This document shows positions 9,619 through 52,849 of a stretch of DNA of 64,000 nucleotides, piece by piece. Every line of letters starts with the position of its first letter. Within the stretch, counting starts at the first letter, position 1. The DNA comes from Candidatus Micrarchaeota archaeon. GTDB taxonomy: Archaea; Micrarchaeota; Micrarchaeia; Anstonellales; Bilamarchaeaceae. A program made the position numbers and the translations under genes. The notes beneath the pieces are model-generated. The model was not told the DNA's origin. It saw only the letters and a program-made list of their open reading frames with translations, and ran no database searches. The DNA lies in assembly GCA_964588555.1 (NCBI GenBank), contig CAZPPT010000004.1, positions 6,476-70,475 of the forward strand, read 5' to 3'.

Positions 9619-9864
9619 ATGAACGAAACGCTTGAGATTGGAAGAGTAAGCGCGCGTGGGCAAATCGCAATACCAATCGAAATACGAAAAGAGATGGGGC
9701 TCGATGAAGGTTCAAAGGTTCTTTTCTTTCTTGAGGATGACACACTTCTTATTAAGAAGGTAAGTAGCCAAACATGGGAACAAATCACTGCTCCGCTTAA
9801 GGCTGCAAAAAAGAAAATACGGGAGGGTGAAGTGGATGATTTGGTGCACCGGATGAGAAAATGA
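9619..9864 (+). CDS. vapB: AbrB/SpoVT-family antitoxin (VapB-like)
   Basis: SARGQIAIPIEIRKEMGLDEGSKVLF is a swapped-hairpin AbrB-type motif. The stop overlaps the ATG of the PIN gene (ATGA). Confidence 0.8.
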   Translation: MNETLEIGRVSARGQIAIPIEIRKEMGLDEGSKVLFFLEDDTLLIKKVSSQTWEQITAPLKAAKKKIREGEVDDLVHRMRK

Positions 9865-10286
9865 TGAAAGTTGTATTAGATACCAACGTTCTCGTTGCAG
9901 CGACGTTTTGGAAAGGCGAAGCAGATGACATTATTCAGTTAATTCAAGAAAGGAAGGTACTCGCTTTTTTGTCAAAAGAAATACTTGGTGAGTATCATAA
10001 AGTTATACGGAGCGATGAGATCATTGAAAAAATTGAAGAAAAGCATTTAACTGTAAAATTGACTGCGATCAAGATCGTGCACCTTTTCGAATTCGTTGAG
10101 CCTAAAAGAAAAATTAATTTTATTATCGATGATCCAGACGACAATAAAATAATAGAATGTGCAGTTGAGGCACAGAGCGACTTTATTATTACTTACGATC
10201 GTAGACATCTACTGAAGCATAATAAATTCGAAGAAATAAAGATTATTTCCCCAGCTGAATTTCTAAGAATTTATAGTCAAAGATGA
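9861..10286 (+). CDS. vapC: PIN-domain toxin (VapC-like)
   Basis: VVLDTNVLVAA at the N-terminus, DDNKIIECAVEA and ITYDRRHLL acidic positions typical of PIN. Confidence 0.8.
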   Translation: MMKVVLDTNVLVAATFWKGEADDIIQLIQERKVLAFLSKEILGEYHKVIRSDEIIEKIEEKHLTVKLTAIKIVHLFEFVEPKRKINFIIDDPDDNKIIECAVEAQSDFIITYDRRHLLKHNKFEEIKIISPAEFLRIYSQR

Positions 10287-10296
10287 GGTGTACGTC

Positions 10297-10803
10297 ATGA
10301 ATGAAACAATCCATATTATCCTGACAGGCGGAACAATCGACTCAGTATTTGACCCTGTAAAAGACGGCGTTGTCATCGGGAAGGAGACAGTAGTTGAGGA
10401 TTACCTAAAGAAGCTGCGGCTCCATAACTCCCTTGAAGTGACGCTTGCATTCCTTAAGGATTCGCGCGAGATCCGCCACGCTGACAGGAAAAAGCTTCTT
10501 GAACTCGTCCAAAAATCGCCACACAAAAAGATCCTTATCACGCACGGCACGTACACGATGCCTGACTCTGCCCAGTACCTTAAGGAAAACATTGCAAAAA
10601 CGAGCAAGACAATCGTCTTTACCGGCTCAATGGTCCCCTTAACTGGTTTTCAGTTTTCAGATGCGGCATTTAACTTAGGCTATGCAATCGGACAACTTCA
10701 GTCATTAAAACCAGGTGTGTATGTGTGCATGAACGGCAAGGCATTTGATCCGGATAGGGTGGACAAGAACACGGTCCAGGGGAGATTTGAAGAGATCGGT
10801 TAG
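10297..10803 (+). CDS. asparaginase N-terminal-domain-like protein
   Basis: IILTGGTIDS (the TGGTI threonine motif) and ITHGTYTM. Only ~168 aa, so a single domain. ATG at 10297 follows GAGGTG. Confidence 0.6.
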   Translation: MNETIHIILTGGTIDSVFDPVKDGVVIGKETVVEDYLKKLRLHNSLEVTLAFLKDSREIRHADRKKLLELVQKSPHKKILITHGTYTMPDSAQYLKENIAKTSKTIVFTGSMVPLTGFQFSDAAFNLGYAIGQLQSLKPGVYVCMNGKAFDPDRVDKNTVQGRFEEIG

Positions 10804-10815
10804 GCGGCGCAAAAC

Positions 10816-11607
10816 ATGCTTGAACTTATCCTCCTTAAATTTTTTGTCGCAGTTGGCGCAGTCCTTGGTTTATCCCTTATCTCAGAACGCATGAGCCCCG
10901 CCACAGCAGGATTTTTGGCCGGTCTTCCAACGGGAACTGCAATTTCTCTTTTCTTTTTTGGACTTGAACACGGGACTGATTTTGCAGCACAAAGTGCAGT
11001 GCATAATCTTTCAGGAATGGTTGCGCTACAGGTCTTCATTTTCTTATATTATGTCGTTTCCGTTCGAATTAAAATTACAAATATTTTTACGATCGCACTC
11101 GTTACTATTATTTCAGTTATCGGATACGCGCTTTCTGTCTATGTAATCAACGCCCTCCATCTTGATCTTTTTGGCTCGGTTCTTGCGCTTATTATTTCGA
11201 TTCCGTTTTTTATCTATTTATTCCGACGGATCGAACCCGCCCGCATCAATGGTGCAGTCACGCTTTCATTTCCCGTACTCGGCATTCGGTCGGTCATTGC
11301 CTCATCTATCATTGTCACCGTTATCTCGATTGCCGGCTCAGTTGGTCCGGCATGGGCGGGCCTTTTCTCCGCATTTCCAACAACGTTGTTTCCCCTTATA
11401 CTCATAACACACCTTACCTACGGAATAAAACCAACCCATGCACTTATCAAACGAGTTCCCGAAGGATTAGGTGGGATGCTTATCTATGGGCTAGGCGTTT
11501 TCTTTACGTACCCGTCGCTTGGGATTTACATAGGTACGATTGCCTCATACGCGCTCGTATTTTTTTATGTCCTGTCGTATCGGATGTTTGCGTTTCGTTC
11601 TCGGTAG
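10816..11607 (+). CDS. polytopic membrane protein
   Basis: 263 aa, about 8 hydrophobic segments, no family recognised. Confidence 0.6.
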   Translation: MLELILLKFFVAVGAVLGLSLISERMSPATAGFLAGLPTGTAISLFFFGLEHGTDFAAQSAVHNLSGMVALQVFIFLYYVVSVRIKITNIFTIALVTIISVIGYALSVYVINALHLDLFGSVLALIISIPFFIYLFRRIEPARINGAVTLSFPVLGIRSVIASSIIVTVISIAGSVGPAWAGLFSAFPTTLFPLILITHLTYGIKPTHALIKRVPEGLGGMLIYGLGVFFTYPSLGIYIGTIASYALVFFYVLSYRMFAFRSR

Positions 11608-14349: not shown

Positions 14350-14377
14350 AAAAAAGCGCCTCCGCCGGGAATGTCAG

Positions 14378-14475
14378 TTTCGCCCTTGCGCTTTTAGGAA
14401 AAGCGCCCAAAACTGGGATTTCAAGGGCGAGCCCCAAAAACAAATTTGACCTGTGCAAATCCTTTTGGTTTTGGG
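14378..14475 (-). repeat. conserved intron module, copy 1 (tRNA-Asp T-loop intron)
   Basis: Plus strand reads tttcgccc ... gggcgagccccaaaaac-loop-ggttttggg. See the finding on the shared module. Confidence 0.6.
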
Positions 14476-14554
14476 ATAATGCGTAGACCTTTGCCATTTG
14501 GTTTTCTAATTCAAAGGGCTTCGCCTTCGAACCCGGGTCGCGAGAGCTCCGTTA

Positions 14555-14631
14555 TTTCGCCCTTTTTAACGCTTCTATATTTCTTGCGTCAAAAAGGTCG
14601 AGCCCCAAAACATGGAAAACCAGTTTTTGGG
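14555..14631 (-). repeat. conserved intron module, copy 2 (tRNA-Asp anticodon intron)
   Basis: Plus strand reads tttcgccc ... ggtcgagccccaaaac-atggaaaacca-gtttttggg. Confidence 0.55.
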
Positions 14632-14749
14632 CTGCCTTTTTTCTAAAAAGGCAGAATGACAGTCTCGTATGCTAACCAATGTGCATTAATCTAAGTAGGA
14701 TTAATACTACACTACAGAGGCTAAAGAGATATATCATGTGTAAAAGAGT

Positions 14750-16068: not shown

Positions 16069-16836
16069 ATGGTCACGACAGAAGAATTCCGCTCCCAGTT
16101 TGCTAAAGGGGTCAAGCAGCAGTGGGTAATTAGTGAGAATATAAAAAACATCAAAACCCGTATCGCAGTCTGGAGCGCGAAAGGCGGAGTGGGAAAAACG
16201 ACATTTGCAGTTAATCTTGCATATGCACTAGCAGAAAAAACAAACACAGGTCTACTTGATGCAGATATTGATTGTCCCAATGTATTTGCTGCCCTTAACA
16301 TCACTGAGCGCCATATTGCAAGCGGAGGTAAAATTCTTCCAGTCAGAAGGGGAAACCTTGAACTGGTGAGTATGGGCGGCATCACTTCGGATACCATCTT
16401 GTGGCGCGGCCCGCTTGTTTCACAAGCGCTTTCCCAATTTCTATCAGGGGTTGCATGGAATGTAGAAACGCTTGTTGTTGACCTTTCACCGGGTTCAAGC
16501 GACGTACCCATCACTATTACAGAACTTCTCAAGCCAACTGGTTTTATCATCATTACAACAAGCGACGAAATGGCGCTTTTGGATGCGCGTAAAAGTATCC
16601 AGTTCGCAAAGAAACTCCGCTTTCCCATTATCGGCATTGTTGAGAACATGTCGGGGGATGTTTTTGGAAGCGGTGGCGGGGAACAATTGGCAGAAGAATT
16701 CAATATCCCGTTTTTAGGATCGTTACCGCTTGATAAGAAAATACGGGAGCATATGCAAAATAATGTGCCACTGCACAAGACGGAGTTTAAGGAGGTGTTT
16801 GAAAAAACGGTGGAAAGAATTAGGGTAGAAAAATAA
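16069..16836 (+). CDS. Mrp/ApbC/NBP35-family Fe-S cluster carrier ATPase
   Basis: Deviant Walker A WSAKGGVGKTT, DADIDCPN and DLSPGSSD motifs, 255 aa. Confidence 0.85.
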   Translation: MVTTEEFRSQFAKGVKQQWVISENIKNIKTRIAVWSAKGGVGKTTFAVNLAYALAEKTNTGLLDADIDCPNVFAALNITERHIASGGKILPVRRGNLELVSMGGITSDTILWRGPLVSQALSQFLSGVAWNVETLVVDLSPGSSDVPITITELLKPTGFIIITTSDEMALLDARKSIQFAKKLRFPIIGIVENMSGDVFGSGGGEQLAEEFNIPFLGSLPLDKKIREHMQNNVPLHKTEFKEVFEKTVERIRVEK

Positions 16837-17191
16837 CTCCTTCTATATTTTCAAATTGTGGATCTCCTGTAAGAAATGGTACGCGTAATGCACGTGCGGT
16901 TACATACCCCATACAATCGGCATATGAAAGTTTTTTGCTTTTATGTTGTAATCGAAACTCAGCTGCTTCTATGAGAAGGTTATTATTAACCGATATTTCA
17001 AATTCTTCAAATGTTTTGTACTGCTTTTGTGCTTCCTCTTTTCTAATTCCTATTCTTCGTAGATTATAGTAGAGTTCGATAAGATTAAACTGGGTAGTCA
17101 AGTATCTAAATCCTCTTTTGTACTGTTCATATGCAGTATTTCCATTTATAATTTGGAAAATAGCGTATGTATCTAAAAAAATTGCACTCAT
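16820..17191 (-). CDS. vapC: PIN-domain toxin (VapC-like)
   Basis: MSAIFLDTYAI..., SYADCMGYVTA and FLTGDPQF. The start overlaps the antitoxin stop (TGATG). Paralog of 29030..29407. Confidence 0.8.
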   Translation of the reverse strand: MSAIFLDTYAIFQIINGNTAYEQYKRGFRYLTTQFNLIELYYNLRRIGIRKEEAQKQYKTFEEFEISVNNNLLIEAAEFRLQHKSKKLSYADCMGYVTARALRVPFLTGDPQFENIEGVIFLP

Positions 17192-17403
17192 CAATCCCAG
17201 CTCTCCCTGCACATTTCCTTAAACTTGCGTGCTGAAACGCCCGTTTTAAGAGAGCCAAATATATGGCCTAGGTCAGCATGTTTTTCAACTGAAATATGTA
17301 TTTTGTCCCCTTCCTTTATGCCTTCTTTTTCTGCAATTTCCTTAGGTATTATCACTGCCAGGGAAGAACCCCATTTTTTTGTTATACTTTCAATCTCATG
17401 CAT
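17191..17403 (-). CDS. vapB: AbrB/MazE-type antitoxin (VapB-like)
   Basis: KKWGSSLAVIIPKEIAEKEGIKEGDKIHI. Paralog of 28821..29030. Confidence 0.8.
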   Translation of the reverse strand: MHEIESITKKWGSSLAVIIPKEIAEKEGIKEGDKIHISVEKHADLGHIFGSLKTGVSARKFKEMCRESWD

Positions 17404-25737: not shown

Positions 25738-26229
25738 TTATTTCGCAGGCGAAAACAGGTGATCTACCCATGCCTTGTTTTTCTCTAGTGCCGCATGATG
25801 CAGTGCATACCGCAGCTCCTCAAACCATTCAGTGCCGGGTCTGCACCGTACTCCCACGTAGACGAGTTCGTCAGGCTCATCTACCCGTTGCCCCGTGATT
25901 ATTTGTGCATCAACTTTATCCTTTCTGATATAAGATACCTTCATGCGCGTCTCAAGAATTAGTTTTGGGAATACGCTGAGTGCAGGGTTTGATTCCAATA
26001 ACGCTATTGCTTGTTCGTAATCCCTTGGCAGGAATAACCCTGTTTTTGTTCCGACTGGAAATGGTATGTGGGGGTCGTCAGCGTCTTGCCTGCAAAGATA
26101 TTCCCTTCCATCCAGTATCTCAATTGTCCTGAACGGGGGACCTCTTCGGCCCGCATTGTGCGCAAGGTAACTTCCGACCATGCCCCTAAATTCCTGTTCC
26201 CGAAAGCAAGCGGTCCTCTTGCCTGGCAT
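25738..26229 (-). CDS. hypothetical protein
   Basis: 163-aa ORF between uppS and priL on the same strand. Confidence 0.5.
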   Translation of the reverse strand: MPGKRTACFREQEFRGMVGSYLAHNAGRRGPPFRTIEILDGREYLCRQDADDPHIPFPVGTKTGLFLPRDYEQAIALLESNPALSVFPKLILETRMKVSYIRKDKVDAQIITGQRVDEPDELVYVGVRCRPGTEWFEELRYALHHAALEKNKAWVDHLFSPAK

Positions 26230-26258: not shown

Positions 26259-27080
26259 TTATTTCCCATACCGTCTTTTTCGCTGCGAATAATCCTTAAG
26301 CGCGTCCTCAAAGTCCTCCTTTGAAAAATCCGGCCACAGTTTTTTTGAGAAGTATAATTCGCTATAACATGACTGCCAGGGAAATAAGCCGCTTAAGCGC
26401 TGTTCCCCCGAAGTCCGGATAATGAGGTCCGGGTCTGGCATATCCTTTGTATAGAGGGACTCGCTCAACTTTCCCTCATCAATTTCCTTAACCCCGCTTC
26501 TTAGTAATCTGTTTACTGCATCGACAATCTCTTCCCGGCCCCCATATCCGAGCAAGAGGTTTAGCTGGTATTTCCTTTTTGCGCTGTTTGTTAATTCCTC
26601 AACTTTTCTTATCATTTCCTGTATCTCTTTTGGAAATATGTCAAAACGGCCAAGAAATCGCACTCGCAAGTTATTCTTATTGCTGTCGTCACTGTTTATC
26701 ACGTCCTGGAGGTTCTTTTTGAATAGTTCAAAAAGCCCGCCAACCTCCGCCTTATCGCGTTTGATATTGTCGGTACTGAATCCCCACATGGAGAGCATGG
26801 AAATATTGTATTCCTTGCACCACTTAAGCACATCGCCAATGTGCCTGATGCCTGTTGCATACCCTTCCGTTTTGTCAACGCCCCTTTGTTCTGCCCATCG
26901 CCGGTTTACAGTGTCCTGTTTTCAGTCAGTTACGAAACTGGAACAAGCTTGTCGCTTTGCGACAAGATGCCCATTGTCCGATCATTCGGACAATTGGGAC
27001 TCGAGACTGGAAACTGACTTTCCGTCCGGGATGATGGCAATGTGCGTTGGCAATTTCTCAACCTTTTCGATTTCAACCAC
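26259..27080 (-). CDS. uppS: cis-prenyltransferase (UPP/dolichyl-type diphosphate synthase), interrupted by a 114-nt insert; coding = 27021..27080 + 26259..26906
   Basis: Exon 1 is (GTG)VEIEKVEKLPTHIAIIPDG. Exon 2 is NRRWAEQRGVDKTEGYATGIRHIGDVLKWCKEYNISMLSMWGFSTDN...IIRTSGEQRLSGLFPWQSCYSELYF. Joining them restores DGNRRW. The track lists only 26259..26831. Confidence 0.75.
26907..27020 (-). other. candidate BHB-type intron inside uppS
   Basis: 114 nt with an in-frame TGA. AAA bulges flank an ACGG/CTGT helix, next to an exon-exon helix CATCCCGG/CCGG(C)GATG. Two perfect internal hairpins. Confidence 0.55.
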
Positions 27081-27102
27081 CAAAACTACTTATAAAAGGA
27101 GC

Positions 27103-28820: not shown

Positions 28821-29030
28821 ATGGAAGTACGTACACGCGTTAGGCGATGGGGTAATTCATTTGGAGTTACTATCCCAAAAGATGTAGCAGAAGGCATGCA
28901 TATTCATGAGGATGAAGAGGTAATCATAGAAGTTAAGAAAACATTCTCAATCAAGGATGCATTCGGTTCCCTTAAGCCAAAACGGTCAGTTGAAGAGATA
29001 ATGAAAGAAGTAGATAAAGGGTGGGACTGA
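28821..29030 (+). CDS. vapB: AbrB/MazE-type antitoxin (VapB-like)
   Basis: RRWGNSFGVTIPKDVAEGMHIHEDEEVIIEV. GGTGAT RBS. Confidence 0.8.
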   Translation: MEVRTRVRRWGNSFGVTIPKDVAEGMHIHEDEEVIIEVKKTFSIKDAFGSLKPKRSVEEIMKEVDKGWD

Positions 29031-29407
29031 TGTATTACCTAGACACCTATGCGATTTTAGAGTATATATTTGGAAATCAAAAGTTTAAACAGTATGTAGA
29101 CGATGCGAATTTTTGTCTCAGCAGATTTAATCTAATGGAGATGTACTATGCGCTTCTTAGAGATTTTAATGAGGAAACTGCTGAAAAGTACTTTGAATCT
29201 TTTGCAATTGCAGAGGTCGAAATCTCTGAAAGAACGCTAAAAAACGCAATGAAAAGGCGATTGGAACTGCATGGAAAAAAATTGGATATTTCGTATGTTG
29301 ACGCAATCGGTTATCAATATGCTTTAGATAATAAATTAAAATTTGTGACTGGTGATAGAGAATTCAAGAATCTTGATTCTGAAAATATAATTTATTTGGG
29401 AAAATAG
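29030..29407 (+). CDS. vapC: PIN-domain toxin (VapC-like)
   Basis: MYYLDTYAILEY..., SYVDAIGYQYA and FVTGDREF. Shares the TGATG junction with its antitoxin. Confidence 0.8.
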   Translation: MYYLDTYAILEYIFGNQKFKQYVDDANFCLSRFNLMEMYYALLRDFNEETAEKYFESFAIAEVEISERTLKNAMKRRLELHGKKLDISYVDAIGYQYALDNKLKFVTGDREFKNLDSENIIYLGK

Positions 29408-37549: not shown

Positions 37550-37780
37550 ATGTATCATATTAGCTTAGATAAAAAAGGACGTATCGTTATTCCATCTGCA
37601 ATTAGGGAAAAATACGGGCTTGAAGAAGTAGAACTACGCGAGGAAAACGGAAAGATTGTACTCGAACCTATACAGCATATTGATGACCCTATCGCGTATC
37701 TTGCTTCATTTTCAATTAAAACAAAAAAATCACCAAAGGAGCTTAAAAAAGAAGCACAAGAATTAATGGGGCGCATGTAA
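37550..37780 (+). CDS. vapB: AbrB/SpoVT-type antitoxin (VapB-like)
   Basis: ATG after GGTGGG. LDKKGRIVIPSAIREKYGL. Confidence 0.75.
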   Translation: MYHISLDKKGRIVIPSAIREKYGLEEVELREENGKIVLEPIQHIDDPIAYLASFSIKTKKSPKELKKEAQELMGRM

Positions 37781-38172
37781 TGTATTATGTTGATACTGAT
37801 TTTTTCCTTGCCCTTGTGAAGGAAACTGATTGGATGAAGGAGAAAGCAATTAATTTTTCCAGAACTAATTCTCTCTTTAAAGAGAAACAGGTTGTAACAT
37901 CTTCCTTTGCCCTACTGGAAACATGGTTTATCCTTGAAAGAAACAAGGCATTTAAGCGCGAAGTTTTTCATGCTATTCGTCAAATTGTCTCTGGCATCTA
38001 TGAATTAAGTACTGACCATCTTGAATATGCGGCATATCTAAAAGAGGCGCATAATTTGAATATTGGAGATGCGATTCATGCATCATTTGCTCTGCAAGAA
38101 GATGGAATAATTAGCAGTGATGATTCATTTGATTATGTTGCTGGATTAAAGCGTATAGATTTTCTCAAATAA
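37780..38172 (+). CDS. vapC: PIN-domain toxin (VapC-like)
   Basis: MYYVDTDFFLAL, GDAIHASFA and ISSDDSFD acidic positions. Overlaps the antitoxin stop. Confidence 0.75.
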   Translation: MYYVDTDFFLALVKETDWMKEKAINFSRTNSLFKEKQVVTSSFALLETWFILERNKAFKREVFHAIRQIVSGIYELSTDHLEYAAYLKEAHNLNIGDAIHASFALQEDGIISSDDSFDYVAGLKRIDFLK

Positions 38173-41802: not shown

Positions 41803-41926
41803 AGCCCCCGGAGGGAATATCAGTTTCCTGTTTCCGGTCTTTAGTTTGACTGCTAGAAACAAGACACGTTTGAACCCCCGGCCTATCGCTTACGAAGCGA
41901 TCGCTCTACCGCTGAGCTACAGAGGC
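41803..41926 (-). tRNA. tRNA-Thr (CGU) with 52-nt T-loop intron
   Basis: GCCTCTG TA GCTC AGCGGTA GAGC G ATCGC TTCGTAA GCGAT AGGCC GGGGG TTCAAA|[52 nt, 41817..41868]|T CCCTC CGGGGGC T. The intron folds as GTGTCTTGTTTCT/GGAAACAGGAAAC. Confidence 0.8.
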
Positions 41927-41968: not shown

Positions 41969-43159
41969 TTACTTATTTACGTCAGCATAGTTGACGACTT
42001 GGTTTCTGCCATGGTCTTTTGCATATTGAAGCGCCTTATTTGCAAGTTCCTTGACTTGCGTTCCAAGGTTGTTCCCTTCAGCGCTTATTGATACGCTGTC
42101 AACTATCCCTGCACTTACGGTGACGGAAAATGCATCATGGTCGTTATACATTATTTGATGGCTTTCAACCTTTGCCCTGAGCCGGTCTGCGATAACGGTA
42201 GCCTGCCCTGCATCTACGCCAAATAGTATAAGGATGAACTCTTCACCCCCCCAGCGGTACAACTTATCAGGATAGGATATCGACGTCGTTACCGCTTCAT
42301 CCCATCCTTGTCCTTCTGGCGGCCTGAGGCTGTTTGGTGGCGGAGGCGGGTCACTGAGGCGCCTTCCCGGCCGATTGGATTCACGTGAAACGCTTTTTCG
42401 TGCATTTGCGGATATCACGTGTGCAACCTCTGAAAGGGCATAATCTGCTATGAAATAACCGTGTTTCGTATTGACTTTTTTAAAATGGTCTATGTCAAAT
42501 ATGACTACGGAGAATGGGGCCTTTGTCCGCACGAGGTCCTTAAGGTCTGCCTCAAATTCTCTTTTTCCAGGCAAGCTCGTGGCATAATCAAAATTGTTCC
42601 GCATATAAAATACGACTGATGACGCGATTGCCGCTCCGACGGACATCGACCGCTTCGGAATACGCGTAATCGAGTCCCTGAGGCTAAGGTCCGTACCTTC
42701 CAGTGCAAGCAGGCCAATAATCTTTGCATTTGGCTTGTTCGACTCTGTTAAGGCTATGAGTATGTGGTCTTTTCCATCAGATGCATGCATCCGTATTTTT
42801 CGTGCAGCAGTATCAAACGGTGTCAAGTTAAATGCATATTGGCTTGTCCCATGGATAAATAACGGGCTTCTGTGCCTTATTGAATGGAGTGCCAAGTCAT
42901 GCTCAAATCTATTCTCAGGTCTGTCAGACGGGTATGTAGTATATGGATACAGCCTATCGTTTTCATACGTATATACTGATACGGAAGTTGCGCCTGCAAA
43001 CATTTCTTTAGCGAGTGCCAGTAATTCCGAGAATGTATGGACATCATTTACAAGCCTGCTGAATTCCCGATGGGCGGCGAGTTCCGGGTTTCCCAGTAGC
43101 CTATTCAAGAACTGTTTTCGTGGCATGACTGGCAGTGGCCCTACAGTTAGTCGTTTCAT
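41969..43159 (-). CDS. GGDEF-domain protein (diguanylate cyclase-like) with N-terminal sensor-like domain
   Basis: VVIFDIDHFKKVNTKHG, RWGGEEFILIL, VTVSAGI and KALQYAKDHGRNQVV occur in GGDEF order. A ~40-aa Pro-rich insert sits before the GGEEF loop. Confidence 0.8.
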   Translation of the reverse strand: MKRLTVGPLPVMPRKQFLNRLLGNPELAAHREFSRLVNDVHTFSELLALAKEMFAGATSVSVYTYENDRLYPYTTYPSDRPENRFEHDLALHSIRHRSPLFIHGTSQYAFNLTPFDTAARKIRMHASDGKDHILIALTESNKPNAKIIGLLALEGTDLSLRDSITRIPKRSMSVGAAIASSVVFYMRNNFDYATSLPGKREFEADLKDLVRTKAPFSVVIFDIDHFKKVNTKHGYFIADYALSEVAHVISANARKSVSRESNRPGRRLSDPPPPPNSLRPPEGQGWDEAVTTSISYPDKLYRWGGEEFILILFGVDAGQATVIADRLRAKVESHQIMYNDHDAFSVTVSAGIVDSVSISAEGNNLGTQVKELANKALQYAKDHGRNQVVNYADVNK

Positions 43160-43218: not shown

Positions 43219-43594
43219 CGCTGAGGACAGGATCTGTTCCTTTCGCCCTTTTTAGATTCATACGCCCTTCCTGTGTAAAAAAGGGCGAGCCCCAAAAACA
43301 GAAGAATCTGTTATTGGTGATCTAAACGGACGAAGTTCAACCGAAAATCTACGGTACACCACCGCAGGGTTTTTGGGATGAAGCGTAGACCTTTTGCCAT
43401 AAGAATGGCACAAGTCAAAAGGGCTCCGCATTGAACCTGTAATCCACGAGGGATCGGTTTACTCGTAACCTGGTTCGAGATTCGCCCCTTGGCCTAACCC
43501 TTCTAAGGGGGTGAGGCCTTAGGGGGCTCCAAGAGACACCTAAGTGCCCCCTAGGCTTCAAGACCGACGCACTACCAGGTTATGCGACCTCAGC
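43219..43594 (-). tRNA. tRNA-Ser (UGA) with two large introns
   Basis: GCTGAGG TC GCAT AACCTGGTA GTGC G TCGGT CTTGAA|[97 nt, 43460..43556]|A ACCGA TCCCTCGTGGATT ACAGG TTCAA(T)|[~197 nt, ~43233..43430]|(A)T CCTGT CCTCAGC G. All four stems are perfect or have one G-U. Long variable arm, G73, oligo-T after. Confidence 0.8.
43241..43377 (-). repeat. conserved intron module, copy 3 (tRNA-Ser T-loop intron)
   Basis: Plus strand reads tttcgccc ... gggcgagccccaaaaac-(69 nt)-gtttttggg. Confidence 0.6.
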
Positions 43595-43619
43595 ATCAAA
43601 CTTTTAGGAAAAGTTTGAT
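43595..43619. repeat. perfect 11-bp inverted repeat abutting the tRNA-Ser 5' end
   Basis: atcaaactttt-agg-aaaagtttgat. It begins at the nucleotide next to tRNA position 1. Confidence 0.6.
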
Positions 43620-51342: not shown

Positions 51343-52383
51343 CTAAAACCAGTCATCTAGTTTGCTCTGTCCGCCCTTTTCCCGGTAATATGTCACCATG
51401 CGGCCCACGGTGCTTGCCACCCGTTCGGCACTAAAATCGTGTTCGTGTACAAGGATCCGCTCGATCTTTTCAGACGAGACCCGCCCCCATGAAAAGTTTT
51501 CAGTGACTTCGGCATACGGCGGGTTCGTAAAGAATTCGAGCACCTCGCCTATGTTTTCTTCAAACTCGTAATTATATTTTGTTTTCACGTACTCCTGCAC
51601 CCCCGCAAGCGTCTTATGTTCCTTTACGACCTTAAGCGCGGTCTTTGGTCCGACCTTGGGAACCCCGATGTTAAAGTCCGTGCCAATAAGTATGCCCATT
51701 ATGATAAGCTGTTCCTGGCTTACGCCCAATGCGGTTCGTGTTTCCTCGGCAACGATTTCCTCAGGTTCAATGAGCACAAACTTATCCTGCCGTGCGACGC
51801 GCCTTCTTCCGGTAATTGAGATGTTGCGCACAAGGCGCGGCGAACCAAACAATATGGAATCGTAATCCTGCGACGCTGCGGCATATGCGACGCCCCGGCG
51901 CACCATGACGCTTGCCTGCGCCTCACCTTCGCTTGGTGCCTGGACATAGGGAATATCCATCGCAACAAGAAGTTCCTTGCATTCCTCTATCATTTCCCCG
52001 GTGAGCCGGGAGGTGGCCTGTGCGTGCCTTCGCGCATCCTCAAAGCGCTCCTCCTCGAGCGCCTTGCGCCATTTTTCCTCAGCCTCGAACTTTGTCCGTG
52101 CCCGCGCTTCGCGCGTTCTTTTTTTGAACGCAGGTGCAACCCCGTCGAAAACAAACACCGGCCTGATGCCGTTTTCAATAAGGCGCGCAGTACGGTAAAA
52201 TAAGCCTGATAAATGCGCAGTAATCCTGCCCTTAAAATCCATAAGGGGCGTTCCGTCCTCCTGGCGGATGCTTGCAAGAAACTGGTATATGGTATTGAAT
52301 GCGTCGATTGCAATGACCTTTCCAGAAAGCGTGTCAAGTGAAATGGTGCGCTTCACTGCCAGGTCGCCAAGGTCAACGCCCAT
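51343..52383 (-). CDS. fen: flap endonuclease 1
   Basis: Start at MGVDLGDL, 2 nt after the upstream stop. AIDAFNTIYQFL, VFVFDG and SQDYDSILFG blocks. Confidence 0.9.
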   Translation of the reverse strand: MGVDLGDLAVKRTISLDTLSGKVIAIDAFNTIYQFLASIRQEDGTPLMDFKGRITAHLSGLFYRTARLIENGIRPVFVFDGVAPAFKKRTREARARTKFEAEEKWRKALEEERFEDARRHAQATSRLTGEMIEECKELLVAMDIPYVQAPSEGEAQASVMVRRGVAYAAASQDYDSILFGSPRLVRNISITGRRRVARQDKFVLIEPEEIVAEETRTALGVSQEQLIIMGILIGTDFNIGVPKVGPKTALKVVKEHKTLAGVQEYVKTKYNYEFEENIGEVLEFFTNPPYAEVTENFSWGRVSSEKIERILVHEHDFSAERVASTVGRMVTYYREKGGQSKLDDWF

Positions 52384-52387
52384 GTGC

Positions 52388-52849
52388 TCACTTTTTCTTC
52401 TGTACGATAAAATCAGAAAGGGTGATGTCGCGCTTGCTCCCAATTTTTTCCTGCGGTGTCGGCCCGCCGATGTCCGCGACTTTTTCAATCAGTTTTATCC
52501 CGAGCTCCTTTTCAAGCTTCTTTGCGCTTGCAAGCGTTAATTTCATTTGCCCGCGTTCGACGCCTTCAAGGTAGCTTGCACGTTCGCTCACCCGTTCAGC
52601 GACCACTGTAACAGGGAGGCCCAATTTTTCCCGCGCGCTTCGTATTTTTTTTGCATAATCCTCGACAATCTCTTCTTCTTGGAGCGGCGTGCTTATTGTT
52701 TGCCGTGCGATTGGTTGGGGCGTGTCATTTTGTAATTGGTACAATATCTTGCCGTGCCCTGCACAGTTTCTGCACGTGGTCATCTTTGCCCCTTCTATCG
52801 ATACGACATAGCCTGCATTTTCCCTGCCGCAAATATCACATGAAGCCAT
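52388..52849 (-). CDS. archaeal MBF1-type HTH protein (Zn-ribbon plus XRE HTH)
   Basis: CDICG...CRNC zinc ribbon, then an IRSAREKLGLPVTVVAERVSERASYLEGVERG HTH. Confidence 0.8.
   Translation of the reverse strand: MASCDICGRENAGYVVSIEGAKMTTCRNCAGHGKILYQLQNDTPQPIARQTISTPLQEEEIVEDYAKKIRSAREKLGLPVTVVAERVSERASYLEGVERGQMKLTLASAKKLEKELGIKLIEKVADIGGPTPQEKIGSKRDITLSDFIVQKKK

Follow-up and report, generated by a model that had tools for sequence, protein, structure and literature searches.

The lipid-carrier gene considered here, uppS, encodes a cis-prenyltransferase and lies on the minus strand of a 64,000-nucleotide (nt) stretch of a Candidatus Micrarchaeota genome (contig CAZPPT010000004.1, positions 6,476 to 70,475; hereafter, the window). 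Its reading frame is interrupted, between the glycine and the asparagine of the DGNRRW motif, by 114 nt (coordinates of this and all other features are compiled in Table 1). Exon 1 encodes (M)VVEIEKVEKLPTHIAIIPDG, an N-terminus of a length comparable to that in homologues, and ends with ...ATC ATC CCG GAC GGA A. Past GGA, the frame of exon 1 runs into AAG TCA; the insert contains two in-frame TGA codons, the first one being codon 13. TGA is an ordinary stop in the window, where it terminates 13 of the 53 open reading frames (ORFs) of at least 150 amino acids. Exon 2 encodes NRRWAEQRG...; its frame is that of the listed ORF 26259..26831. That this ORF begins past the N-terminal catalytic motif, that the motif is cut exactly between G and N, and that codon 13 of the insert is a TGA had been stated in an initial annotation of the window, and all three are borne out by the minus-strand sequence and its translation; the second TGA had gone unmentioned. 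The insert is not peculiar to one assembly: a Logan assembly of SRR5011273 is identical to the window over 6,573 bp, the 114 nt included.

Joining the two exons results in a protein of 236 amino acids (the initial annotation had counted 235), which matches the Pfam profile PF01255 (Prenyltransf) over its entire length (positions 1-219 of 219; E = 1.3e-74) and aligns with solved cis-prenyltransferases (PDB 2vg1) without a gap across DGNRRW. The 190-amino-acid ORF alone covers only positions 30-219 of the profile and contains neither DGNRRW nor the catalytic Asp/Arg loop. At the predicted junction, spliced mRNA would read ...CCGGACGGAA|ACCGGCGATGG, 114 nt below the genomic length, and encode the junction-spanning peptide IIPDGNRRWAEQR. 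The unspliced mRNA could yield only a 33-amino-acid peptide, or an enzyme devoid of the catalytic Asp/Arg loop; thus, splicing would be obligatory for the function of uppS. Gene callers keep a truncated uppS of 190 (or 179) amino acids (26259..26831 in the window; 3001..3573 in L160) and, in other genomes, report an N-terminus reading through the insert (P0103) or a CTG start (P0072). Intron-bearing genes of the uppS type are systematically mis-annotated.

The insert junctions form a motif of the bulge-helix-bulge (BHB) type. When the minus-strand RNA from 27050 to 26880 was folded with RNAfold in the absence of constraints, the BHB was part of the minimum free energy (MFE) structure (z = -4.1), and none of 200 shuffled sequences folded equally well. 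An exon-exon helix with one bulged C, as drawn in the initial annotation, was recovered, with 8 bp (CAUC/GAUG plus CCGG/CCGG) instead of the 9 bp given there, and in the MFE structure it is extended by UUGCC/GGCAG. The central 4-bp helix with its single G-U pair and the AAA bulges on both strands were also found as described. Cutting after the second nt of each bulge sets the intron at 27019..26906, one position away from the 27020..26907 of the initial annotation; because of the ambiguity of AAA, both result in the identical spliced product. Inside the intron, the two perfect hairpins previously noted, TTGTCCGA-ATGA-TCGGACAA (26993..26974; a single occurrence in the window) and CTTGTCG-CAAAG-CGACAAG (26966..26948), are indeed present. 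No Rfam family matched the 114-nt interior even at E ≤ 1. A C/D small RNA inside the intron was considered and rejected by eye, AUGAUCG not being a proper C box (RUGAUGA).

Once spliced, the junction corresponds to a stem with a 7-nt loop (CCGG-ACGGAAA-CCGG), and the place of the intron is therefore equivalent to tRNA position 37/38, within a mimic of an anticodon arm that is made of the codons for IIPDGNRRW. The inherent palindromy of this junction may be what makes the site able to host an intron.

The closest uppS genes among 185,579 species genomes all belonged to Candidatus Micrarchaeota (DPANN), and most of them were contiguous through DGNRRW. Including the window, nine complete alleles contained an insert at the identical G|N junction (17-70 nt in the eight others), and a tenth intron-bearing allele, L161, was recovered in part (incomplete sequence). 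Insert length was not a multiple of 3 in five of the nine, and every insert contained at least one stop (up to three) in the frame of exon 1, so that its removal is needed to keep the reading frame. In the intronless sister alleles L083, which reads ATAATTCCTGACGGAAATCGCAGATGG at the site, and L081, the reading frame is exactly the one predicted for the spliced form. In a neighbour-joining tree, intron-bearing alleles were scattered inside a single Micrarchaeota clade, and its sister clade had none. Insert interiors were mostly unrelated: BLAST detected no significant similarity between alleles, nor between the 114-nt interior and tRNA introns or other compared sequence. By eye, the introns of the window and L163 resemble each other at their ends, and a 5' segment is common to L084 and L162, which fits descent in situ with insertions and deletions.

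Despite the unrelated interiors, the MFE structures of all eight other complete alleles presented the same order of exon helix, bulge, 4-bp helix, and bulge. The 8-bp exon-exon helix with one bulged nt was found in all alleles and intron hairpins in eight of nine; L084 contains a strict BHB, L010 a bulge-helix-loop. A BHB of 4+4 bp at one specified pair of positions has a probability of ∼1.5e-4 by chance, and in the present case nine genomes have it at one and the same codon boundary. For analysis of covariation, the BHB cores of the nine alleles were aligned, the interiors being replaced with a spacer. Standard pairs occupied 98.1% of the 108 pair cells, compared with 25-40% when the partner columns were slid by one to three positions, and neither the score for pairing nor that for covariation was reached in any of 500 column shuffles. 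Two pairs changed in a compensatory manner, one in the exon-exon helix (G-C to U-A; Pro CCG/Arg CGG versus Pro CCU/Arg AGG) and one in the central helix (C-G to U-A; Asp GAC/intron G versus Asp GAU/intron A). All four base pairs of the inner exon helix were present in 9/9 intron-bearing alleles, compared with 1/22 intronless DGNRRW alleles (Fisher p = 5e-7), and this contrast holds despite the fact that synonymous sites are saturated between most alleles.

When the position of the cut was left free, only cleavage after the second bulge nt on both strands restored PDGNRRW in all nine alleles, which extends to the relatives the rule by which the initial annotation had restored G-N-R in the window. 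L085 (bulges UAA/AGA) rules out cuts at positions 0 and 1, and L162 (AAG/AAA) rules out position 3; with the junctions located by demanding the restored motif, this test shows that any single fixed rule is the canonical one. Between intron-bearing alleles and their intronless sisters, dN/dS was 0.065 (L007 versus L083) and 0.079 (L084 versus L081). Judging from these ratios, intron-bearing uppS is under strong purifying selection and, with a dN/dS of ∼0.07, not a pseudogene. Taken together, the 114 nt very probably represent a genuinely spliced BHB intron within the uppS coding sequence of a Micrarchaeota (DPANN) archaeon.

Splicing would proceed as follows. The I-I-P-D codons of the pre-mRNA (CAUCCCGG) would pair with the N-R-R-W codons (CCGG-C-GAUG), and the next four exon nt (ACGG) with the four intron nt preceding the 3' bulge (CUGU), which would result in an AAA bulge on either strand, with 4 bp between the two. 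The splicing endonuclease EndA (of the epsilon2 type in Micrarchaeota) would cut after the second nt of each bulge, and an RtcB-type ligase would join ...GGA A to AC CGG..., thereby restoring DGNRRW and an mRNA for the 236-amino-acid enzyme. The intron would be released, probably as a circle. We infer both the involvement of these enzymes and the occurrence of splicing in vivo.

Several observations weigh against this interpretation. Splicing itself is a prediction from the comparison of DNA. The 5' AAA bulge, drawn as a 3-nt bulge in the initial annotation, faces one unpaired A and thus forms a 3x1 internal loop, so the motif of the window is a relaxed BHB on its 5' side. The central helix of L162 contains a mismatch (A.G), and a C.A mismatch would arise in the exon helix of L161, whose Arg codon is CGA. 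The similarity of the exon flanks of intron-bearing alleles could in part stem from co-conversion and not from structural selection. Because the BHB begins ∼50 nt after the start codon, splicing would have to compete with translation, and translation coupled to transcription would rival the folding of the motif. A scan of the window with a loose pattern (4-bp flank, 4-bp centre, and 3-nt bulges) resulted in 2,672 and 2,335 matches on the two strands, compared with ∼2,275 in shuffled sequence; in-silico splicing at the window's matches restored no tRNA, and the scan also gave 652 uninterpretable "ORF-joining" candidates. The motif alone is therefore weak evidence, and the case rests on the comparison between genomes. 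Finally, neither an EndA nor an RtcB gene was found with Pfam among the ∼60 ORFs of the 64-kb window.

Other explanations for the interrupted frame have to be considered. The data are metagenomic, and the second assembly may stem from the same reads, so the insert might be an assembly artefact or a chimera. The separate Logan assembly is, however, identical, and nine further independent assemblies, obtained in different studies, contain inserts at the same site, which makes an artefact hardly conceivable. Alternatively, this uppS might be a disrupted copy, the insert being a scar of repair or what is left of a mobile element, with another uppS providing the function. The truncated ORF reported by gene callers would be in line with such a pseudogene, and a LAGLIDADG gene close to uppS in some relatives indicates that the locus has been visited by mobile DNA. 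However, both exons are intact and conserved in nine genomes with the low dN/dS given above, and the unrelated interiors are bounded by identical junctions within a conserved, covarying BHB. Neither terminal inverted repeats nor copies of the insert elsewhere in the 64-kb window were found, and no second uppS locus was detected in the intron-bearing metagenome-assembled genomes among matches down to ∼40% identity, a point weakened by the incompleteness of such genomes. Loss of function is thus very unlikely.

It is also imaginable that the insert is retained in the mRNA and the ribosome deals with it, by hopping, stop readthrough, or frameshifting. The translational bypass of T4 gene 60 takes off from a GGA codon, which would also be the take-off codon in the window, and the insert of the window happens to be divisible by 3. 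But among the alleles take-off would be from GGA or GGU, and there is no matching landing codon, the codon before AAC being GUA in the window and CGU, CAU, or AUU elsewhere. Readthrough is excluded by insert lengths between 17 and 114 nt, five of nine of which are not multiples of 3, and by up to three in-frame stops; recoding is at odds with TGA being a normal stop in the genome. Conservation applies to an RNA structure of two strands, in which changes are compensatory, and not to a hop signal, and a bypass of the T4 gene 60 type was rejected. Overall, translation across the insert is highly improbable. Somewhat less so, but still unlikely, is that EndA cleavage serves as a regulatory or destructive switch, with only a fraction of the cut mRNA being ligated or with cleavage mainly down-regulating uppS. 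The intron in the 5' untranslated region of Haloferax HVO_1309 influences expression (PMC7714728), and the closeness of the uppS intron to the start codon would set translation against folding. Exact restoration of the frame in every allele, on the other hand, argues for productive ligation, as does the nature of the gene, uppS being normally essential and present in a single copy.

As to the class of the uppS intron, two 3-nt bulges on opposite strands (relaxed on the 5' side in the window) with a 4-bp helix between them, flanking helices, a functional product after cuts at the second nt, and compensatory conservation combined with a variable interior were all found, as is characteristic of archaeal BHB introns. 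Self-splicing introns of group I or group II, whose ribozyme core comprises hundreds of nt and conserved domains, were rejected on account of the size of the inserts (17-114 nt) and the lack of an Rfam match at E ≤ 1, and an intein, which would be translated in frame along with its host protein, on account of the exon-1-frame stops in 9/9 inserts and the shifted frame in 5/9.

Introns also interrupt several tRNA genes of the window, one to three per gene, at positions 16/17, 37/38, and 59/60. The 37/38 junctions of tRNA-Asp and tRNA-Ser obey the same cut rule as the uppS intron, and the CUGUCAC and CUUGAAA anticodon loops read from them in the initial annotation were reproduced by the BHB cuts. 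In tRNA-Asp, the central helix of the 37/38 BHB (CUGU/ACGG) is the mirror image of that in uppS. At their 3' ends, the T-loop inserts of tRNA-Thr and tRNA-Asp resemble each other (GAAACUGAUAU and GAAACUGACAU, respectively). ARAGORN, irrespective of whether its intron mode was used or not, detected only tRNA-Pro in the window and overlooked the intron-rich tRNAs; Rfam missed tRNA-Asp and matched only the 5' 54 nt of tRNA-Thr, which it reported as "complete." The intron-rich tRNAs were therefore assembled by hand and checked with ARAGORN after in-silico splicing, upon which tRNA-Asp and tRNA-Thr were recognized. Introns at such non-canonical positions require a broad-specificity endonuclease in the host. 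The epsilon2 EndA of Ca. Micrarchaeum has been shown biochemically and structurally to be of broad specificity (PMC3239211, PMC3488258, PMC12397907), and expression and crystallization of the ARMAN-2 enzyme are on record (PMC12397907); by analogy, this and the tRNA introns support the notion of a permissive splicing endonuclease in the host of the uppS intron.

Table 1. Features of the uppS locus, inserts at the same site in related genomes, and intron-bearing tRNA genes (bp, base pairs; nt, nucleotides; aa, amino acids)
Feature	Sequence	Position	Strand	Length	Remarks
uppS exon 1	Window	27020..27083	-		Start TTG 27083 or GTG 27080; 21 codons plus first nt of the Asn codon
BHB intron (predicted)	Window	26906..27019	-	114 nt	Bounds from the canonical cut after the second nt of each bulge
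uppS exon 2	Window	26259..26905	-		AC CGG CGA TGG ... TAA
Exon-exon helix, 5' strand	Window	27026..27033	-		CAUCCCGG; Ile-Pro-Asp codons
Exon-exon helix, 3' strand	Window	26896..26904	-		CCGG-(C bulge 26900)-GAUG; Asn-Arg-Arg-Trp codons
Exon strand of the central 4-bp helix	Window	27022..27025	-		ACGG
Intron strand of the central 4-bp helix	Window	26908..26911	-		CUGU; pairs A-U, C-G, G-U, G-C
5' splice-site bulge	Window	27019..27021	-		AAA; predicted cut 27020/27019
3' splice-site bulge	Window	26905..26907	-		AAA; predicted cut 26906/26905
Intron interior	Window	26948..26993	-		Two perfect hairpins in a multibranch fold; hairpins not conserved among the other alleles
Insert at G|N	Window			114 nt	Divisible by 3; also in Logan assembly of SRR5011273
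Insert at G|N	L163			70 nt	Not divisible by 3; Logan assembly
Insert at G|N	L003			42 nt	Divisible by 3; species-genome scan
Insert at G|N	L085			41 nt	Not divisible by 3; metagenome scan
Insert at G|N	L009			35 nt	Not divisible by 3; species-genome scan
Insert at G|N	L162			33 nt	Divisible by 3; NCBI assembly
Insert at G|N	L084			28 nt	Not divisible by 3; metagenome scan
Insert at G|N	L007			27 nt	Divisible by 3; species-genome scan
Insert at G|N	L010			17 nt	Not divisible by 3; species-genome scan
LAGLIDADG_3 gene	L162	500..1504		334 aa	Between purP and exon 1
LAGLIDADG_3 gene	L003	1875..2789			Between purP and exon 1; 50% identical to that of L162
LAGLIDADG_3 gene	L010	2351..2984			Between purP and exon 1; decayed, fragmented
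tRNA-Asp(GUC)	Window	14721..14357	-		Inserts of 27 nt in D-loop, 110 nt at 37/38, 155 nt in T-loop (59/60)
tRNA-Thr(CGU)	Window	41926..41803	-		52-nt T-loop insert, 41868..41817
tRNA-Ser(UGA)	Window	~43600..43440	-		~97-nt insert at 37/38; stem UCGGU, CUUGAA|...|A, stem ACCGA; gene may hold further inserts

The spacer between purP and uppS is usually 29-110 nt long. In L162, L003, and L010, it holds a free-standing LAGLIDADG_3 gene of 0.7-1.0 kb; the ORF of L162 overlaps exon 1 in another frame and has its stop within the intron. Such a gene upstream of exon 1 was present in three of eight syntenic intron-bearing loci versus none of nine intronless ones (p = 0.08), an association of endonuclease and intron that is suggestive only; neither the window nor most of the intron-bearing alleles have the gene at this position. 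The encoded protein had no significant match in the PDB (I-DmoI, E = 0.86). Archaeal BHB introns in rRNA carry LAGLIDADG homing endonucleases (PMC4496867, PMC2602781). Cyanophage psbA/F-CphI (PMC6083498) and T4 mobE (PMC2790892) are known cases of "collaborative homing," in which an intron lacking an ORF homes together with a free-standing endonuclease next to it. The uppS locus resembles these homing systems in having a LAGLIDADG gene in three relatives and a patchy distribution of the intron at one site; unlike in the rRNA introns, the endonuclease gene lies outside the intron, upstream of exon 1.

We tentatively consider it possible, while rating it as rather unlikely, that the uppS intron is, or was, mobile and spread among Micrarchaeota by collaborative homing with the upstream LAGLIDADG endonuclease. 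The endonuclease would cut intronless uppS at the sequence encoding DGNRRW; the intron, ∼60 nt away, would be co-converted with the endonuclease gene and would shield its carrier by splitting the target. After fixation, the endonuclease would decay (as in L010) and then be lost (as in the window), leaving an orphan intron that still needs splicing. If true, this would provide a mechanism for the entry of endonuclease-spliced introns into protein-coding genes. Just downstream of uppS, the intronless L001 (3920..4414) and L081 (1040..1498) contain a distant LAGLIDADG homologue (∼30% identical), and in the window an ORF of 163 amino acids without Pfam match (25738..26229) occupies the same position. 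The neighbourhood of uppS may be a hotspot for LAGLIDADG-type genes.

Two further candidates for split genes in the window were rejected. The asparaginase-N ORF (10288..10800) and the ORF at 10816..11604 are separate genes (fold z = +0.2), and FEN1 (51343..52488) simply begins at an internal ATG (MGVDL...). The 64 kb contain four PIN-domain ORFs (9861..10283, 16823..17212, 29021..29404, and 37780..38169), at least one of which adjoins an ORF for a MazE-like antitoxin (according to the Logan gene calls); this density of toxin-antitoxin-like genes is unusually high for a small DPANN genome. Adjoining the intron-bearing tRNA-Thr, an ORF of 396 amino acids (41972..43159, minus strand) contains a domain of the GGDEF (diguanylate cyclase) type, not a common one among archaea.

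For more than 20 years, endonuclease-spliced introns in archaeal coding sequence have rested on one gene, cbf5, in one phylum. Its pre-mRNA introns were reportedly described by Watanabe in 2002 and by Yoshinari in 2006. The introns of cbf5 (22-31 nt as listed in PMC2738675; Yokobori 2009) and of uppS are both short BHB introns in coding sequence, and their motifs are often relaxed; the distribution of both is patchy, with gains and losses, and both have been mis-annotated as split or frameshifted genes. The hosts of both combine many non-canonical tRNA introns with a broad-specificity endonuclease, a presumed one in the case of uppS. In contrast to cbf5, which encodes an RNA-modification enzyme in Crenarchaeota (Desulfurococcales/Sulfolobales) with an (alpha-beta)2 endonuclease, uppS encodes a cis-prenyltransferase in DPANN, presumably with an endonuclease of the epsilon2 type, and its introns, for which splicing is predicted only, reach up to 114 nt and interrupt a catalytic, P-loop-like motif 21 codons from the start. 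Because gene and host phylum differ, the uppS intron is of the same kind as the cbf5 introns but not a member of their family.

In geometry, the uppS intron is identical to the archaeal tRNA introns at 37/38 as attributed to Marck & Grosjean 2003 in PMC6379350: a stem, a 4-bp helix between loop nt and the 3' end of the intron, two 3-nt bulges cut after the second nt, and a spliced product consisting of a stem with a 7-nt loop. It differs in being hosted by an mRNA, in which codons make up the "anticodon arm" and there is no tRNA body. Like HVO_1309 of Haloferax volcanii (PMC7714728), uppS would present the splicing endonuclease with an mRNA as substrate in a host that is not a crenarchaeon; however, the HVO_1309 intron lies in the 5' untranslated region and interrupts no reading frame.

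The presumption of the initial annotation that an intron of this type in uppS would be new agrees with the searchable papers, which name only cbf5 for BHB introns in archaeal coding sequence (PMC2738675, PMC7714728, PMC12397907, PMC6379350); no report of an intron in uppS or in any Micrarchaeota mRNA was found in the searchable literature. Measured against these papers, uppS would be the second archaeal protein gene whose coding sequence holds a BHB intron, and the first such gene outside Crenarchaeota. The DPANN host, the patchy sharing of the intron within a clade, and the LAGLIDADG gene that abuts exon 1 in some relatives had not featured in the initial annotation. Mechanism and kind are known; gene, phylum, presumed type of endonuclease, size range, and location in a catalytic motif are new. 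Because annotation pipelines report the truncated ORF of 190 amino acids, metabolic reconstructions of DPANN may wrongly score such genes as broken or absent. The nine length variants between 17 and 114 nt amount to a mutational series provided by nature, suited to probing the requirements of the epsilon2 endonuclease outside of tRNA, and the LAGLIDADG gene beside exon 1 in some genomes offers a route to study the origin and movement of such introns. If the uppS intron is spliced as predicted, introns in mRNA would recur once a lineage has gained a permissive endonuclease and many tRNA introns, which would support the published proposal of co-evolution between the specificity of the endonuclease and the spread of introns.

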